This document shows, piece after piece, positions 29,552-36,927 of a DNA stretch of 64,000 nt (within the stretch, counting starts at the first letter, position 1; the number at the start of each line of letters is the position of its first letter). Both the position numbers and the translations under genes were made by a program. The notes under the pieces are model-generated. The model was not told the DNA's origin. It did not search any database and saw only the letters and a program-made list of their open reading frames with translations. This stretch comes from Bacilli bacterium (GTDB lineage Bacteria > Bacillota_I > Bacilli_A > RF39 > UBA660). Where the stretch lies: contig JAEDNL010000001.1 in the NCBI GenBank assembly GCA_016302505.1, forward strand, positions 7,851 to 71,850. The letters run 5' to 3'.

Positions 29552-29965
29552 TTAGTTTCCACAACAAGTACGACGTACAGGTTTATTACAATAGCATCTT
29601 CCGGTGATTTGACATGGAGTAAATTCTACTGTTACAAAGCAACTTTCTTCATTTAAGCAAGGACATGTATTTTCGTTAGGGATAATTTCACATGTTCCTT
29701 CCAAAGTTACGACTTCTACTTTGTTATTGCATCTATTTGTGATTTGGCAACAACAATGATTATCGTTTTGAATTAGTTCAGCTAAGTGTCCGTCTACGCA
29801 AGTTTCAAATAATAGTTTTATATTTCCGCAAAAGCAATCGCTATCATAGATGATTGGTGTACAAAATGGAGTGCCGTTATCACATAAAGTTAGAGTACAT
29901 AAATCATTATTTTGAATTATTTTCATTGCTTCTTGCATTTTTAATCTTGTAAAATTTGTGTTCAT
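29552..29965 (-). CDS. Cysteine-rich (19 Cys in 137 aa) PNPOx-like split-barrel family protein
   Basis: The N-terminal half follows the Pyridox_ox_2 pattern (..EAMKIIQNNDLCTLTLCDNGTPFCTPIIY..G.I.L.F.T...G). Start is ATG 29965, after GGGAGGA. Confidence 0.5.
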   Translation of the reverse strand: MNTNFTRLKMQEAMKIIQNNDLCTLTLCDNGTPFCTPIIYDSDCFCGNIKLLFETCVDGHLAELIQNDNHCCCQITNRCNNKVEVVTLEGTCEIIPNENTCPCLNEESCFVTVEFTPCQITGRCYCNKPVRRTCCGN

Positions 29966-30096
29966 AATTCCTCCCACTTTATTTTATGTAGGACTGCTTT
30001 TTAGACATAATGTAAATGACCTAGTTTTTAAGCGTTAATATATTAGTGATGAATTTTTTACTTGAAATTGGTATAATATAGTTAGGAGTGGTTAGG

Positions 30097-30438
30097 ATGT
30101 ATTGTACAAATTGTGGAAATAAATTAAATGGAGATGCTTATTGTTCTAATTGTGGAAAACAGATTAAGACTCATAGTAGTTTTGGTTTTGGCGTTCTTGG
30201 TTTTTTCTTTCCAGTAATAGGACTAATTTTGTTTTGCGTGTGGATAGGTAGTAGAAAGAAAGATGCTAAAAGTGCGATAATTGGAGCGATTATAGGTTTT
30301 ATTTTGCATGTTATTTTATATTTATTTATATTTTATTTTGTTGTGAGCATAATTGATAATACTGATTGTTTTTCGGTTTGTAATGGCCATTTTGAGTATA
30401 GAGATGGTGTGTGTATTTGTCAGGATGCTGTTTATTAA
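30097..30438 (+). CDS. Zinc-ribbon membrane protein
   Basis: MYCTNCGNKL...YCSNCG zinc ribbon followed by two TM helices. Confidence 0.6.
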   Translation: MYCTNCGNKLNGDAYCSNCGKQIKTHSSFGFGVLGFFFPVIGLILFCVWIGSRKKDAKSAIIGAIIGFILHVILYLFIFYFVVSIIDNTDCFSVCNGHFEYRDGVCICQDAVY

Positions 30439-30516: not shown

Positions 30517-31503
30517 ATGAAAAAAAGCAGTAGAGCACTTAATTTAATGTTTAGATTTTATAAGGAGCATAATTTTGATCCTTTTCATTTTTTAATGGTT
30601 GGAGATTTACTTGCTAGTTATGATTTTGATGATAATTTAGTTGCTAGTGGTTATTTACTTCCTTTAATTAGAAATAAGATTTTTGATGCTTGTGAATTAT
30701 CTAGTTTAGTTGGCGGGGATGTTTCTAGTATATTATTATTAAGCACAATTCCTAAGGATATGAGTGATATTAAATTAAAAAAGTTTATTTCAGATTTACC
30801 AGATAGAGTAAAATGCTTGATTTGTGCGGATTTAATAGTTAGCTTAAAAAACGAACACGAATTGGATTTAGATTATTATTATTTACTATTTGATGCTTTG
30901 AAAAATGATTTTGATAATTTTATTATTAACTATTTATATTTTGCTTTATTAGATTATCAAAATGGTACTATAAGTAGTAGTCAAGAGGTAAAATTTGCTT
31001 CACTAAATGAGACACTAAGTAGTTTAAAACCATATGTTTTATTAATTGGTGAAGGAATTGATTCTTTTGATAGTTTCTTTTCTGAACTGTTTGTTAACGA
31101 TTTTTTGATTAGAGTAGGGACTGAACCGTATAGAAGAGGAATTTCTTTAGAAGAAAGAAATAGACTTATTAGTTATGCTTTGGATGATAGTCTTTTTTAT
31201 CAAATGTTTGGTGATAGAAGGATTGTACTCCTTCATGAAGATGTTTATGATAGATTAGTGTGGTTAAAAATTTTGGTTAATAGAAAAGAGTATACTTTAC
31301 TTGATATTAACAAATACTTTAAGAATAGTGCGGTTCTTTTAAAAAAGAACATGAATTTTTGTTATTTTGATTTTATGCAATCTATTGATGTAAATATTGA
31401 TGTGAAAAGTGCTGATTTTGAAGTTGATGTTGCTTCTTTGTTTTTGCCAATAATGAGTGTTAAGAGTTTATTACTACTAAAAGCTAAAATAAAAAATAAA
31501 TAA
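30517..31503 (+). CDS. Hypothetical protein; N-terminus resembles a degenerate RelA/SpoT-type HD domain
   Basis: PFHFLMVGDLLASYDFDDNLVASGYLLPLI ... VGGDVSSILLLSTIP ... PDRVKCLICADLIVSLKN parallels HP..VA.iLa...D...i.AalLHD ... FG..Va.lV.gvTK ... D.RV.LIKLADRLHNMR, but without the H/HD residues. Confidence 0.35.
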   Translation: MKKSSRALNLMFRFYKEHNFDPFHFLMVGDLLASYDFDDNLVASGYLLPLIRNKIFDACELSSLVGGDVSSILLLSTIPKDMSDIKLKKFISDLPDRVKCLICADLIVSLKNEHELDLDYYYLLFDALKNDFDNFIINYLYFALLDYQNGTISSSQEVKFASLNETLSSLKPYVLLIGEGIDSFDSFFSELFVNDFLIRVGTEPYRRGISLEERNRLISYALDDSLFYQMFGDRRIVLLHEDVYDRLVWLKILVNRKEYTLLDINKYFKNSAVLLKKNMNFCYFDFMQSIDVNIDVKSADFEVDVASLFLPIMSVKSLLLLKAKIKNK

Positions 31504-32327: not shown

Positions 32328-32458
32328 ATGAGCTCCTTTTTATACTTTTATTATTAAAATTAATTATATCATTTTTTACTTGCTCAATCAACAATTCTTT
32401 TGCTCTTTAAATACGAAAAAAAGTATGGTAAAATGATTATTGTAAAGAAGGTGATAGA

Positions 32459-34204
32459 ATGAGTGCTGTTGCGATGTTTTTAGAAGAACTTCAAAAGAGA
32501 ATAGATAGTGCTGCTTTACAAAAAACAAGTTATGATAATAAGCGAAATGCTTTAATTGAAATAGATAATATTATTCTAACGTATGGGTTAGATAAGAAAA
32601 TGATTACTAGTGCTGATTTAGGAACACTAGCAAGCACTAATATTGTTCATTTAGATAAACTTTTGGATTTTACATCAATTGCTACTGAACCCGGTGATAG
32701 GAATCTAATTAAGAATTATCTTGCTGTTTTAGAGCTTGATAGAAGAATAAGAGGAAAATATGAAGGTGTGGGAATGGAACCTTCTATTATAAGAACTAAA
32801 GAATATATAGATAGAGTTGCGATGGAAGTTACTCAAAATTTAGCTGTATGTTTAAAAAAGGAAAGAGAAGTATCAGAAAGAGAAAAAGAGATGCTTGACT
32901 TACCTAGAAATGTTTTGGCTTTGTTTAAAAATGGAGTTTTGACAAAACCAATATTTGATTTTAGTGATATTGATAAATTGTCTCTTGGAATGCCTTCTAA
33001 AGAAAGAGGCGAATTAAAATTAGAGTTATATGTTCAAAGTTATAATTTAGTCGCTTTTAAAATGAGTAAAGAAGATGAACTTTTTTTAAATAAATTTAAA
33101 GAAATTGTGAGTACTAAAAAGAAAAAATATGCAGCTGCTTATGAAAAAATAGTTAATGAAGATATAAATTTTAGTGATATGGATGCTGCTATTTCACTTT
33201 TTGAAGAACAATATGGTCTTAGTTTTGCAGATGCTAAAGGTGCGGTAACGGTTTTGCTGTTGGAAAAAAATATAACTGATTATGAAAATACGTTAAGAAG
33301 AGCTGATGTTCCTGAAAACTTTAAGAAGGAAATGATTCAGACAATTAAAGATGAAATGGAAAGTGTTTTGGCATTTTCTCGTAAACATGAAAAAACTAAA
33401 AAAGTAGAGGTTGAGGAAAATACAGAACTATCTAATAGTAAACTTTTACTAGATGAACACATTAAAGAGGCAGAAGGCATTATAAAAGCAGAAGATGCTT
33501 TGATTAAAAATGTAGATGGTGAAAAACTAGGAATGTTTCTTGCTCAAAGTGCGAGTGAAGACACCAAAGAAGCCTTAACTTATAGACTTGCCTCTATTTT
33601 AATTAGTTTAGTTAATGTTTTAAATGCGATTAAAGATAAAGAAAAATTATTAGAAGATGATGAAAATGCCTTAATAAGAGAACGAAAAGAAGCGATTGGG
33701 AAGATAAATGATTGTATTGAAACTTATAGAGTATTAAGAAAGCAAGAACCTTTAGAGAAAATTCCTGAGAAAGAAGAAGATATTTCGTTTAAAGTATTAT
33801 ATTTGACTGATAATAGTGGAAAAGATTATTTTTCAGCAATTACTGCTGGTCAAGAAAAAAAATATATTAGTGATGTATCAAAGTTAGTTCATAAGTTGGA
33901 ACAAGGTATGTTTGCAGGTAGTGAGAAGTGTGAAGGGTATAGCCAACCAATTTATAGACTTGCTTCAAAAAAGAGTAGAATTATATATATGAGATTAGCT
34001 AATAATTATATTTTAGTGCTTGCTCCTGCGATAAAAAGTGAGGAAACTAAGAGTGTTTTAGATAAAATTGTTAGAAACAGTGATAGAATTGATTATTTTA
34101 TTAAAACTGCTAAAGATGAAAGTGTAGCATCAGTGTTGTATGATGAACAGGCTAGTATAAGACAGAGTTTAAAAGCAAATGATGTAGTAAAGAAGGTAAT
34201 GTAA
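32459..34204 (+). CDS. Large helical protein ending in a RelE/ParE-superfamily (Gp49/HigB-like) domain
   Basis: The C-terminal ~110 aa, KVLYLTDNSGKDYFSAI...KLVHKLEQGMF...PIYRLASKKSRIIYMRLANNYILVLAPAIKSEE, follows the Gp49 pattern (f....Gk.p...l..L..G...lyElR...R.iY.....ivlL..f.K). Confidence 0.5.
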   Translation: MSAVAMFLEELQKRIDSAALQKTSYDNKRNALIEIDNIILTYGLDKKMITSADLGTLASTNIVHLDKLLDFTSIATEPGDRNLIKNYLAVLELDRRIRGKYEGVGMEPSIIRTKEYIDRVAMEVTQNLAVCLKKEREVSEREKEMLDLPRNVLALFKNGVLTKPIFDFSDIDKLSLGMPSKERGELKLELYVQSYNLVAFKMSKEDELFLNKFKEIVSTKKKKYAAAYEKIVNEDINFSDMDAAISLFEEQYGLSFADAKGAVTVLLLEKNITDYENTLRRADVPENFKKEMIQTIKDEMESVLAFSRKHEKTKKVEVEENTELSNSKLLLDEHIKEAEGIIKAEDALIKNVDGEKLGMFLAQSASEDTKEALTYRLASILISLVNVLNAIKDKEKLLEDDENALIRERKEAIGKINDCIETYRVLRKQEPLEKIPEKEEDISFKVLYLTDNSGKDYFSAITAGQEKKYISDVSKLVHKLEQGMFAGSEKCEGYSQPIYRLASKKSRIIYMRLANNYILVLAPAIKSEETKSVLDKIVRNSDRIDYFIKTAKDESVASVLYDEQASIRQSLKANDVVKKVM

Positions 34205-36120
34205 TGGAAGGTAAAGAAATTTTATTACAAATTTTAAATAATGGAGCACTTGCTTCTGATTCTGCTTTGCTTGAAGGTTTAAGAGAATTAACTTTAAAAA
34301 TAGATAAGGAACTTGCTTTAGTTAATGAAGGTAAAGAGCATTATGTCAAAGTTCTTAGTGATGCTATAAAAGATGGTGAAGTTTTTGATAAAGTAACTAA
34401 TCTTTTGGTAGATGCTGACAAAAATGTTTTTAAGGCAAGACTAGAGTTTATAAATGGATTAAGTGAGATAAGTGGGGAAAATCAGTTTATTTTGACGGCT
34501 GAGCAAGAAACTGAATTAAATAAGTTTATTTTACTGTTAAAAGAGGCTTCAGAAAAGTTTAAACTTAGACTAGAACTTATGGAAAAAACTGATGTTTCAG
34601 GAAGCGAGATAGAAAGAATTAAGAAGCTTCTTGATGCTGATGAACTTTTTATGCCAGATGATTATTATGCAGTAATGAATATTGTTAGGTCGTATAATCC
34701 AGCACTTGCTGATACTAATTGGGATAAGGTTGTTACGTTTTTAAATAGTTATAATGGTGAAAAATTAAAGAAATTTTATGAAGAGAAACAAAAAGATGAC
34801 GGACCAGTTAGAGCTAAATTTACTAATCCGGAAGAAGATATTTTTAGTCATAAGGATGTATTGAAGAGACCTGCTAAACCAGTAAGCGAAATAGAAAAAA
34901 TTGAAAATAGACAAAAAGTTAAAGAGATAATGGCTAGTATTGGTTTTGATTTTGATAAGTTACCACAATATTATCAAAATAAATTATTAATAGCGGATGT
35001 AAACGAACTAAAAGAGATGGCAATATATTTAAATGATAATGGTTATATTAAAAAGATTGGTGTTAATAATGATAGAGGAATTTGTGAGGTTTTAACCGGA
35101 GCTAACGTTAGAGATTTTGTAAGTATTATTGATGCACTAAAAAATGGATATAAACTTCAAGATAGAGAGATTAATAATATGTTAGTTCGTGGGACAGTTA
35201 TTTTTACTAGAAGAGGATTTAAAAATTTTAGAGGTAATGCTAATCTTTTAACTCAGTATGGTGTTGGTTTGAATTTTATGATTTATAGAGCTATTACTTT
35301 CTTGTTTGGCAATGCTAAAAATCAGGCTAATTTACTTGAATATTTAGGTAATATAGGTATTAACTGTAAGAAATTTTTAGAAAAATGTGGTTCTGTATTA
35401 ACTGATGGAGGCGCAAAAATAAAAGAAAATATTAATACACTAGTTAATTATGGCTTTAGTTTAAGTGAAAGTGATGAAAATAGTTTAAATTCTTATACTG
35501 TGTTAAAATCTAATGATTTAGCTACTGCACTTGATCAGTTTATTGAGCTAGGGTTAAATGAGTATATTCATAATTCACCAACGGCTGCTGTAAAGTCTAT
35601 TAAGGAGTTAATTGTTAAGAGAATATATTATGCTTTTAAGAATAATTTGCCGGTTTGGAAGACTTATAATACGGAACAAAGTCAATTAAATGGTGAAATA
35701 GTAAGACCAGATGGTTACAGTGAAGAAGAGGTTAATGCAACTATTTTAGAACAGTTTTATTCACAAAACACTAAGTATAATAGTTGGATTGCTGAAGAAA
35801 AAACTCCTAGTGAAGAGGAAATACTAATTTTAATTGCTGATTATCCTAATTTAGAAATGCTTGAAGAGGGGCATAGATTAGCTATTTATACTGATAGTAG
35901 ATTTGCACAAATAAAGCGTAAGACTGAATTTATGTTTGGAAATAAAGTTATTTCTAGATTAAAGACTTATAGGGCATTTAATGCTTTAATTAAACATGAG
36001 GTTGATCCTAATGAGGCTTTAAAGTATGCTATAACGTATAATTCTATATTAAGTGATGGAGATTTAGAAATGATAAATAAGTCTTTATATGGTGGTAATG
36101 AGGAAGTGAAAAGCTTATGA
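34204..36120 (+). CDS. 638-aa helical-repeat protein (mTERF-like ~35-aa repeats)
   Basis: It shares 1 nt with the stop of the previous gene (TAATG). Periodic units recur about every 35 aa: LNDNGYI, LKNGYKL, LTQYGVGL, LGNIGIN, LVNYGFSL, FIELGLNEY. Confidence 0.5.
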   Translation: MEGKEILLQILNNGALASDSALLEGLRELTLKIDKELALVNEGKEHYVKVLSDAIKDGEVFDKVTNLLVDADKNVFKARLEFINGLSEISGENQFILTAEQETELNKFILLLKEASEKFKLRLELMEKTDVSGSEIERIKKLLDADELFMPDDYYAVMNIVRSYNPALADTNWDKVVTFLNSYNGEKLKKFYEEKQKDDGPVRAKFTNPEEDIFSHKDVLKRPAKPVSEIEKIENRQKVKEIMASIGFDFDKLPQYYQNKLLIADVNELKEMAIYLNDNGYIKKIGVNNDRGICEVLTGANVRDFVSIIDALKNGYKLQDREINNMLVRGTVIFTRRGFKNFRGNANLLTQYGVGLNFMIYRAITFLFGNAKNQANLLEYLGNIGINCKKFLEKCGSVLTDGGAKIKENINTLVNYGFSLSESDENSLNSYTVLKSNDLATALDQFIELGLNEYIHNSPTAAVKSIKELIVKRIYYAFKNNLPVWKTYNTEQSQLNGEIVRPDGYSEEEVNATILEQFYSQNTKYNSWIAEEKTPSEEEILILIADYPNLEMLEEGHRLAIYTDSRFAQIKRKTEFMFGNKVISRLKTYRAFNALIKHEVDPNEALKYAITYNSILSDGDLEMINKSLYGGNEEVKSL

Positions 36121-36413
36121 TAGATTATTTAAAAAAATATAATTTAACTGATGATGATATTAATTTATTAAATAGTCAGTTAAGTGAAGATCTTAAGAAT
36201 AGTTTATTTGTGATGAAAGAAAATGCAGAAGCAATTTTAGATTATTTAAAGGAATTAGGCGTTACTAATTTTAAAGATTTGTTATTTGAGAGAACTGATA
36301 TTTGTTTCTTTGATTTAAATTATTTAAAAGAAAAAATAGAGAAATATGATAAGAAGTTAATTAAATTTGTTATAGATAATTCTATTGGAGATTTACTAGA
36401 TTTTGATATCTAG
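36117..36413 (+). CDS. 98-aa protein with the same helical-repeat unit
   Basis: ATGA overlap with the upstream gene. ILDYLKELGVTNFKDLLFERTDICFF resembles one mTERF-type unit. Confidence 0.45.
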   Translation: MIDYLKKYNLTDDDINLLNSQLSEDLKNSLFVMKENAEAILDYLKELGVTNFKDLLFERTDICFFDLNYLKEKIEKYDKKLIKFVIDNSIGDLLDFDI

Positions 36414-36463: not shown

Positions 36464-36504
36464 TTAGCACTTGCTATTGACAAGTGCTAAAATAGTGATA
36501 TAAT
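36464..36504 (+). promoter_or_regulatory. CIRCE (HrcA operator) overlapping the hsp20 promoter
   Basis: Perfect inverted repeat TTAGCACTT-N9-AAGTGCTAA (36464-36490). TTGACA at 36477-36482 and TGATATAAT ending at 36504. Confidence 0.7.
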
Positions 36505-36522: not shown

Positions 36523-36927
36523 ATGAGATTTATGAATTTAATCCCAAGAAATTTTTTATTTGATGATGATTTGGAGGATTTCTTTGTGACAAAACCTAGT
36601 AAAAGAGGTGAAATGAAATGTGATATTTATGAAAAAGATGATAAATATTATATTGAATTAGATGCACCTGGTTTTGATAAAAAAGACATTAATATTGAAG
36701 TAAAAGATGGATATCTTACTGTAAGAGCACATAAAAAAGAAGTAAATAAAGATGAAAAGAAGAATTATATTAGAAAAGAAAGATATTATGGTGAGTATTC
36801 AAGATCATTTGCTTTAGGTGATGTTGATATTGAAAACATAGATGCTAAATTTGAAAACGGTATTTTAAATATTACTGTTCCAAAGAAAGAACTTCCTGAA
36901 AATAAAAAATATATTGAAATTAAATAA
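36523..36927 (+). CDS. Hsp20/alpha-crystallin family small heat-shock protein
   Basis: DIYEKDDKYYIELDAPGFDKKDINIEVKDGYLTVRA ... FENGILNITVPK, the alpha-crystallin domain. Confidence 0.88.
   Translation: MRFMNLIPRNFLFDDDLEDFFVTKPSKRGEMKCDIYEKDDKYYIELDAPGFDKKDINIEVKDGYLTVRAHKKEVNKDEKKNYIRKERYYGEYSRSFALGDVDIENIDAKFENGILNITVPKKELPENKKYIEIK

Follow-up and report, generated by a model that had tools for sequence, protein, structure and literature searches.

Organisation of the locus and the mTERF-type repeats of gene 2

Three overlapping open reading frames (ORFs) on the forward strand, here called g1, g2 and g3, lie at positions 32459-36413 of a 64,000-nucleotide (nt) stretch of a Bacilli bacterium contig (JAEDNL010000001.1), which we refer to as the window and which has a G+C content of ~27%. 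The initial annotation of this DNA had described the three ORFs as translationally coupled, and both the coordinates and the junctions were found as claimed: the stop codon of g1 overlaps the start codon of g2 by 1 nt within TAATG (...GTA ATG TAA TGG), and that of g2 overlaps the start codon of g3 by 4 nt within ATGA (...AGC TTA TGA). Direct scans of the three proteins against Pfam, NCBIfam, PADLOC and PHROGs gave nothing relevant, no catalytic domain was detected in any of them by family scans or by profile searches of the Protein Data Bank (PDB), and all three are predicted to be soluble, with neither signal peptides nor transmembrane segments. The central finding of this study is that g2 belongs to a conserved bacterial family of mTERF-repeat proteins. 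The mTERF family (Pfam PF02536) includes human MTERF1-4, plant mTERFs and the Tetrahymena mitoribosomal protein mS93, and a 2026 survey describes mTERF genes as absent from fungi and prokaryotes (PMC12977773). The existence of an mTERF-repeat family in bacteria is a solid descriptive finding that counters this stated view of mTERF distribution, and the remark in the initial annotation that such repeats are rarely discussed in bacteria was an understatement. No literature linking mTERF to Firmicutes or Mollicutes was found.

The repeats occupy the middle of g2 as seven units of ~35 amino acids (aa), anchored at G247, G280, G315, G353, G382, G417 and G450 and spaced 29-38 aa apart; at least six such L..xG units had been seen initially, and they are real. 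The units of g2 and those of mTERF proteins are alike in being helical, ~30-38 aa long and built on the signature hydrophobic-x3-L-x2-(Y/L)-G-hydrophobic. Alignment of g2 segments with one another by hhalign gave no significant internal repeats, the units being too degenerate. The relation to mTERF proteins emerged from a profile, A7, which was built from the g2 repeat region only of 22 diverse family members and compared with PDB sequences. This profile matched eight human MTERF1 chain sequences with E = 5e-8 to 2e-7, MTERF3 with E = 1.1e-5 and mS93 with E = 1.5e-3; its ten best PDB matches were all members of the mTERF family, designed armadillo repeats coming next. Pfam mTERF was also matched individually by six of the 22 members, with a best E of 3.5e-5, and a genus-level g2 profile retrieved nothing from the PDB sequences. 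At the level of family profiles, the g2 repeats are thus homologous to those of eukaryotic MTERF1 and MTERF3, and because both the family profile and the Pfam matches lie at the sequence level, the relation exceeds a resemblance in fold.

Predicted structures point the same way. AlphaFold2 (AF2) models of g1 and g2 were built from shallow genus-level alignments, and the best part of the g2 model, residues ~230-360 with a predicted local distance difference test score (pLDDT) of 70-90, consists of short helices in triplets. Foldseek matched this low-confidence model to PDB entries for MTERF1 (3mva_O, probability 1.00, root-mean-square deviation (RMSD) 4.1 Å over 240 columns) and MTERF3 (3m66, probability 0.99), with MTERF4 and Tetrahymena mS93 also among the matches; the superpositions on mTERF structures have TM-scores (TMt) of 0.48-0.50 and RMSD of 4.1-6.2 Å, at E-values of 0.18 or above for every g2 match. 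The initial description of g2 as mTERF-like is borne out by the family profile and by Foldseek alike. The transcription activator-like (TAL) effector dHax3 and the related BurrH were also among the Foldseek matches (probability 0.5-0.9), and they share with the g2 model a helical solenoid of ~33-35-aa repeats. Their global superposition on g2 is poor, however (RMSD 13-19 Å), the g2 repeats are degenerate rather than near-identical and lack a hypervariable pair like the repeat-variable diresidue, and the g2 sequence profile matches mTERF proteins and not TAL effectors.

The conserved core of g2, as delimited by an exhaustive profile search, comprises the repeats and the C-terminal domain. The N-terminal region has no known relatives among Pfam and PDB entries, and in many distant g2 relatives the match to the family profile starts only at position ~230. 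The C-terminal domain likewise has no relative in Pfam or the PDB and is modelled with pLDDT below 50; it contains S584, R585 and K587, which are invariant or nearly so, within a basic patch (KRKTEF...ISRLKTYR in the window, KRK...SRxKxYR across the family) that gives residues 560-600 a net charge of +6. From the mTERF proteins described to date, g2 differs in that its repeats are flanked by a helical N-terminal region of ~230 aa and a conserved C-terminal domain of ~180 aa. That family is eukaryotic, nuclear-encoded and organelle-targeted, whereas g2 is bacterial and found in chromosomal operons, where a probable mini-mTERF, g3, and the long helical g1 protein accompany it. It is also acidic to neutral, and canonical mTERF proteins are basic. 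Like MTERF4 with NSUN4, g2 appears to work with dedicated partner proteins.

The smaller of these presumed partners, g3, follows g2 directly at every locus with sequence there and is probably a mini-mTERF of two units, as judged from alignment. With broad alignments, hhalign placed g3 on the g2 repeat region over 72 columns covering two consecutive units (E = 2.9e-5, probability 74%), a hidden Markov model (HMM) of the g2 unit scored g3 above shuffled sequences (p about 0.014-0.03), and three of ten g3 homologs matched Pfam mTERF weakly. The earlier statement that g3 contains the same type of unit as g2 therefore has moderate support; the hhalign signal appears only with broadened alignments, pairwise BLASTP and genus-level hhalign between g3 and g2 giving no significant match, and a g3 profile found nothing among PDB sequences. 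The protein is acidic, with an isoelectric point (pI) of 4.4, and ends in a conserved acidic and hydrophobic C-terminus, DLLDFDI.

Conservation of the gene triad

Word-indexed protein searches returned 29 clusters of relatives for g1 and 16 for g2, all of them unnamed, and an exhaustive profile search of representatives enlarged the g2 family to 73 clusters (50% identity), of which 41 match with E<1e-30. When the word-indexed search was repeated with a broad alignment, almost solely proteins already found were returned. A contig of the human-gut metagenome-assembled genome (MAG) 'uncultured Tenericutes bacterium UMGS1372' (L006) is near-identical to the window, with 99% protein identity in g2, and in the genomes presumed to belong to the same genus, whose neighbouring proteins are 77-95% identical, synteny extends from htpG through hsp20 to the ABC transporter, with the three genes at a fixed position. 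The related MAGs belong, we infer, to the RF39-type reduced-genome Bacilli.

Beyond the genus, the order g1-g2-g3 is kept in some twelve divergent lineages of low-GC Firmicutes, spore-formers included, in varied neighbourhoods; the distant g2 relatives that were examined for context share 16-31% identity with g2 of the window. The proteins are 600, 663 and 98 aa long (in the order g1, g2, g3) at locus L012, 595, 617 and 97 aa at L013, 533, 757 and 97 aa at L014, 403, 655 and 98 aa at L015, and 676, 685 and 99 aa at L016, which has uvrA as a neighbour. At L011 (215, 604 and 97 aa) the genes adjoin rpsT, gpr and spoIIP, at L038 (507, 562 and 78 aa) they stand between a ymcA-like gene and cotE, and at L040 (595, 631 and 99 aa) they adjoin sspI and rnhB; the lengths at L039 are 307, 744 and 100 aa. 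Three metagenome loci (L031-L033) show the same gene order, and spacing within the triad ranges from -26 to +28 nt across loci. The downstream ORFs are homologs of g3 at all loci, also by HMMs that had not been trained on the loci tested (E 1e-7 to 1e-14), and the upstream ORFs are homologs of g1 by HMM in L012-L015 and L031-L033. The triad, whose co-conservation the initial annotation had suggested as a check, was seen in every related locus examined, with different genes around it. Because the copies in L011, L038 and L040 lie amid sporulation genes, the family also occurs outside the reduced, non-sporulating lineages of the gut.

The three genes diverge quickly. Between clades, protein identity is 36% for g1, 41% for g2 and 51% for g3, as against 82% for HtpG, 94% for Hsp20, 77-82% for the ABC transporter and 85% for a P-type ATPase, and in both amino-acid divergence and the ratio of nonsynonymous to synonymous substitution rates (dN/dS) the trio evolves roughly 4× faster than htpG and the neighbouring housekeeping genes. 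In the comparison of the window with L005, dN/dS was 0.092 for g1, 0.083 for g2, 0.091 for g3 and 0.025 for htpG. Since values of about 0.08-0.10 indicate purifying selection, g1, g2 and g3 are real genes. Allelic replacement was considered as the cause of the 36-41% identity between clades and is unnecessary, as the ~4× rate excess seen within clades roughly accounts for it.

A RelE-like segment in gene 1

The product of g1 is largely helical. Its AF2 model has a mean pLDDT of 74 and is all-helical over residues 1-428, and in the closer lineages residues 1-430 are the core that g1 conserves, with conserved motifs in the alignments. This part has no sequence relative in Pfam or the PDB, full-length g1 profiles included, and its Foldseek matches to catenin, vinculin and spectrin-like bundles all have probabilities of 0.2 or less and RMSD above 15 Å. 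Residues 3-285 of g1 (window 32465-33313) align collinearly with residues 7-293 of g2 (34222-35082; hhalign E 2.5e-4, probability 43%); the two N-terminal halves could be ancient paralogs, or the alignment could be noise from helical composition.

Past the helical part, residues 444-530 adopt a predicted fold of the RelE/ParE (HigB/Gp49-type) superfamily. DSSP assigns strands to residues 445-447, 488-490, 498-502, 507-513 and 517-523 and helices to residues 457-461, 467-481 and 528-539, and residues 445-523 form a beta-alpha-alpha-beta-beta-beta-beta unit with pLDDT of about 58-79; both the order of these elements and the modelled three-dimensional shape are like those of the superfamily. The best Foldseek match in the PDB was Streptococcus pneumoniae HigB (6af4_C, probability 1.00, E 0.036, TMt 0.58), the 6af4 and 6af3 matches having probabilities of 0.97-1.00; Mycobacterium tuberculosis RelE2 (3g5o_B, TMt 0.76) and RelE1 (9g12, TMt 0.70-0.73) and ParE2 also matched, and HigB, RelE and ParE were the only PDB matches of g1 with a probability above 0.4. 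The initial annotation had placed a RelE-superfamily domain in the last ~110 aa of a largely helical protein. The helices and the predicted fold stand; a sequence signal does not accompany them, and the segment ends before a further 51 residues that carry a conserved YDxQxxxR motif. No RelE, HigB, ParE or Gp49 signal was found in Pfam, NCBIfam or the PDB with the full protein, with a cropped domain alignment or with a broadened alignment, and hhalign of the domain against Escherichia coli RelE gave a probability of 0.1%. Foldseek against BFVD, a viral structure library, gave no RelE-like match for g1, only low-probability helical ones resembling tape-measure proteins.

The active-site residues of RelE are K52, K54, R61, R81 and Y87. 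Within the genus, the g1 segment is invariant only at M511-R512-L513 and a few hydrophobic positions; R512, which by eye we take to be the candidate counterpart of RelE R61, is confined to the genus-level clade and is replaced in wider relatives (L012 'CIPI', L013 'YML', L038 'YIPM'). Conservation of catalytic residues was proposed initially as a check on the fold; no putative catalytic residue of the segment is conserved beyond the genus. What is conserved family-wide in the C-terminal part of g1 is a hydrophobic core pattern together with Q564 and R568 of the YDxQxxxR motif, which are invariant in genus-level and broadened alignments, and the tail bearing this motif travels with the RelE-like segment. 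The dN/dS of the segment alone is 0.10. In L015 and L031-L033 (GC 24-25%), g1 ends where the RelE-like module would start. Loss of the module, apparently more than once, has thus left g2, g3 and the N-terminal part of g1 in place; because this subclade keeps them, the module is dispensable to their role. At the very distant locus L038, where nothing like the N-terminal part of g1 can be recognised, the C-terminal module scores 29.5 bits (shuffle maximum, 5.1), which makes it an ancient feature of the family. On its sequence and model, the RelE-like module is probably a non-catalytic accessory and not a poison.

The initial annotation had suggested a novel toxin/immunity system, and such a system would be a non-canonical toxin-antitoxin, abortive-infection or defence unit in which g1 is a RelE/HigB-like mRNA interferase on a sensor scaffold, neutralised by g2 and/or g3 until phage or stress triggers it. 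The predicted fold is the plainest argument for it, HigB, RelE and ParE being the sole high-probability Foldseek matches, and R500, R512 and K527 of the window g1 lie, by eye, near the expected catalytic positions of RelE. These basic residues are, however, unconserved outside the genus, as the substitutions of R512 illustrate, and the absence of a sequence or profile relation to RelE, HigB, ParE or Gp49 extends to broadened profiles. The toxin-like part is encoded first, as in higBA loci, and the genes are tightly coupled; yet g2 and g3 contain no DNA-binding antitoxin domain (helix-turn-helix (HTH), ribbon-helix-helix (RHH) or AbrB), and they cannot exist merely to neutralise the RelE-like module, because the subclade without it keeps the N-terminal part of g1, g2 and g3. 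The markedly faster evolution of the trio than of its neighbours would suit a conflict system, but a dN/dS of about 0.1 gives no sign of diversifying selection, and in every species of the genus the trio occupies one and the same place in the chromosome, which points to vertical inheritance. No PADLOC defence model matched, no relatives of the trio were found in PHROGs, BFVD or 2.9 million viral contigs (the latter searched with a profile from a 10-sequence subset), and no association with mobile elements was seen in the loci examined. We regard this explanation as distinctly unlikely.

RelE/Gp49 domains are usually ~100-aa stand-alone toxins paired with HTH antitoxins. The g1 segment is instead fused to a 430-aa scaffold and a conserved tail, has neither an HTH or RHH antitoxin beside it nor a conserved catalytic constellation or mobile context, and is dispensable in a subclade. 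Because the likeness is one of fold and extends to neither sequence, catalytic residues nor architecture, g1 is not to be filed as a RelE/Gp49 toxin, and a RelE-type predicted fold in a non-toxin setting cautions against annotating toxins by fold alone.

A long helical N-terminus followed by an RNase-like fold also resembles LXG-type toxins, and g1 could on this ground be a polymorphic toxin, contact-dependent or secreted, that delivers a C-terminal RelE-type RNase of the Barnase-EndoU-ColicinE5/D-RelE (BECR) fold, with g2 and g3 as immunity or accessory proteins. Within the genus, variability is indeed higher in the C-terminal part of g1 than in its N-terminal part, but the C-terminal modules of different lineages are homologous and not swapped, and the triad persists without the module. 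No signal peptide, transmembrane segment, LXG, WXG or other secretion-associated domain was found, the annotated neighbours at the loci examined included no secretion-system genes, and g2, a large protein with higher conservation than g1, is unlike immunity proteins; the explanation is highly improbable.

Proposed function

The reading that we favour, and to which we give about even chances, is that the trio is a vertically inherited, cytoplasmic mTERF-type adaptor complex of low-GC Firmicutes in gene expression, and not a toxin-antitoxin or defence system; its function is one that we infer. Overlapping genes would make g1, g2 and g3 a stoichiometric complex. In it, the solenoid of g2, which g3 may extend or cap in trans, would bind a specific nucleic acid (rRNA or DNA), and g1 would serve as an elongated scaffold whose RelE-fold module, where present, would be a surface for docking and not an RNase; the RelE/ParE folds characterised so far bind either the ribosomal A site or gyrase. 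The trio would probably act in gene expression, for example in ribosome biogenesis or association, or in transcription termination or pausing. Characterised mTERF proteins bind nucleic acid, MTERF1 double-stranded DNA and MTERF4, mTERF9 and mS93 rRNA or the ribosome (PMC7909791), and by analogy g2 may do so too. The initial alternative of a lineage-specific housekeeping or RNA-metabolism module fits better than a toxin system but falls short in its lineage restriction, the family being far wider than one lineage.

Several observations weigh against this reading. The AF2 model of g2 is poor overall (mean pLDDT 55) and confident only over residues ~230-400, the Foldseek E-values are all weak, above 0.03 for both g1 and g2, and the window's own g2 has no Pfam mTERF score, its homology emerging only with family profiles. 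Complex formation is deduced from gene overlap alone, and in L011, L039 and L040 the ORF before g2 cannot be recognised as g1, for which reason the three-way core is firm only for g2 and g3. Fast evolution is also expected of conflict systems. Finally, the repeat region of g2 has a net charge of about 0 and whole g2 a pI of 5.2, and because the proteins are acidic and the repeats about neutral, the ligand of g2 could be a protein instead of a nucleic acid.

The last point leads to an explanation in which the trio is purely a protein-protein scaffold, for instance a cytoskeletal, cell-division or chromosome-organisation factor of these reduced or little-studied Bacilli, whose repeats bind protein. 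Helical-repeat solenoids often bind proteins, all three proteins of the trio are acidic overall (pI about 4.4-5.5), no part of the trio carries a detectable catalytic domain, and in the PDB profile search designed armadillo repeats rank directly after the mTERFs. The elongated helical part of g1, ~430 residues long, and its weak matches to catenin, vinculin and spectrin-like bundles would also suit a scaffold, but those matches are low in probability and poor in superposition. The significant and specific similarity is to mTERF, of which all characterised members bind DNA or RNA (PMC7909791), and the best-conserved residues of g2 sit in the basic patch KRK...SRxKxYR. We consider a purely protein-binding scaffold unlikely, if less so than a toxin, and take it as a serious competitor of the favoured reading.

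An adaptor complex in gene expression, our preferred reading, can be taken further. The trio may represent an ancient and hitherto unrecognised bacterial branch of mTERF, a three-protein machine with a domesticated, catalytically dead RelE-fold module that docks on the ribosome or gyrase, acting on the ribosome or transcription in low-GC Firmicutes; we put this forward tentatively, as a possibility that is somewhat doubtful. If true, the origin of organellar mTERF proteins would gain its first prokaryotic context, and the trio would show how a toxin fold can be taken over for a housekeeping adaptor. No description of a system that combines a large mTERF, a mini-mTERF and a helical scaffold bearing an optional RelE-fold module was found in the libraries and papers searched. 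Gene expression in mitochondria and chloroplasts is under the central control of mTERF proteins, whose evolutionary origin is unclear. The bacterial family bears on whether eukaryotic mTERF has bacterial roots or whether the bacteria acquired their family by transfer, and, being conserved and having fixed partners, it offers a tractable prokaryotic system for studying the ligands and partnering of such solenoids. It also gives a structural class to three 'hypothetical proteins' of abundant uncultured reduced-genome gut Bacilli.

Regulatory signals and flanking genes

The features of the locus are collected in Table 1.

Table 1. Genes, protein regions and predicted signals in and around the g1-g2-g3 locus (window coordinates).
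Feature	Position	Strand	Description
g1	32459-34204	+	581 aa
g1 residues 1-430	32459..33748	+	Elongated all-helical scaffold; pLDDT mostly 70-90
g1 residues 444-530	33788..34048	+	Predicted RelE/HigB-like fold, accessory, probably non-catalytic
g1 residues 531-581 and stop	34049..34204	+	Tail with conserved YDxQxxxR motif; low-confidence helices
g2	34204-36120	+	638 aa
g2 residues 1-228	34204..34887	+	Helical N-terminal region, variable across the family; low AF2 pLDDT
g2 residues 229-460	34888..35583	+	Seven mTERF-type helical repeats
g2 residues 461-638 and stop	35584..36120	+	Most conserved domain of the family
g3	36117-36413	+	98 aa
Candidate operon promoter	32406..32434	+	TTTAAA-17-TAAAAT, extended -10 TG; weak; from a consensus scan
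CIRCE-like inverted repeat	36464-36490	+	TTAGCACTT-N9-AAGTGCTAA; overlaps the hsp20 promoter; marks the operon boundary
hsp20 promoter	within 36464..36504	+	Perfect (12/12) sigma-70 match, TTGACA-16-TATAAT; not part of the module
hsp20	36523-36927		Downstream of g3
Cys-rich ORF	29552-29977	-	141 aa
Upstream ORF	30088-30438	+	116 aa
Upstream ORF	30517-31503	+	328 aa

Between the candidate operon promoter and the ATG of g1 there is a sequence, GAAGGTGA, that resembles a ribosome-binding site. Promoter-like sites are not more numerous in the region overall than in shuffled sequences, and the candidate is a pattern match only. Metatranscriptome coverage is fragmentary, consisting of short low-depth contigs of which none convincingly spans a gene junction. 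From g3 to hsp20 the + strand has no predicted intrinsic terminator, and transcription may therefore read through into hsp20.

The initial annotation had located the genes just upstream of an hsp20 preceded by a controlling inverted repeat of chaperone expression (CIRCE), and both elements are present in the sequence; the CIRCE-like repeat implies control of this small heat-shock protein by HrcA. A heat-shock link of the trio was considered and set aside, there being no CIRCE in the sequence upstream of g1, hsp20 having its own promoter and operator, and the neighbours in distant lineages differing. Adjacency to hsp20 recurs at two distant loci (L013 and L015), and other lineages have different neighbours. 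A gene with a staphylococcal-nuclease domain, sometimes accompanied by Flg_new, lies divergently 5' of g1 in L013 (3988-4773), L014 (4531-5310) and L015 (4939-5682). The adjacency of the triad to hsp20 and to this nuclease gene may reflect ancestral synteny or a functional link.

Just upstream of g1, the 328-aa and 116-aa ORFs have diverged as much as g1-g3 (dN/dS about 0.10-0.14). The former shows 30% identity between clades and no Pfam or NCBIfam match; the latter shows ~42% and, by eye, a zinc ribbon and a membrane helix. The 141-aa Cys-rich ORF on the opposite strand has many C-x-x-C-like pairs, 81-84% identity between clades and a dN/dS of 0.01. Sister genomes carry insertions at the locus (L003, 3787-4907; L001, 12461-14073 and 663-2463; L007, 12860-14422; L008, 5793-7670): an insertion sequence with an rve transposase separates htpG from the Cys-rich ORF, hsp20 and the ABC transporter have one or two additional genes between them, and a reverse-transcriptase (RVT_1) gene with a MutS_I fragment is found upstream of htpG.

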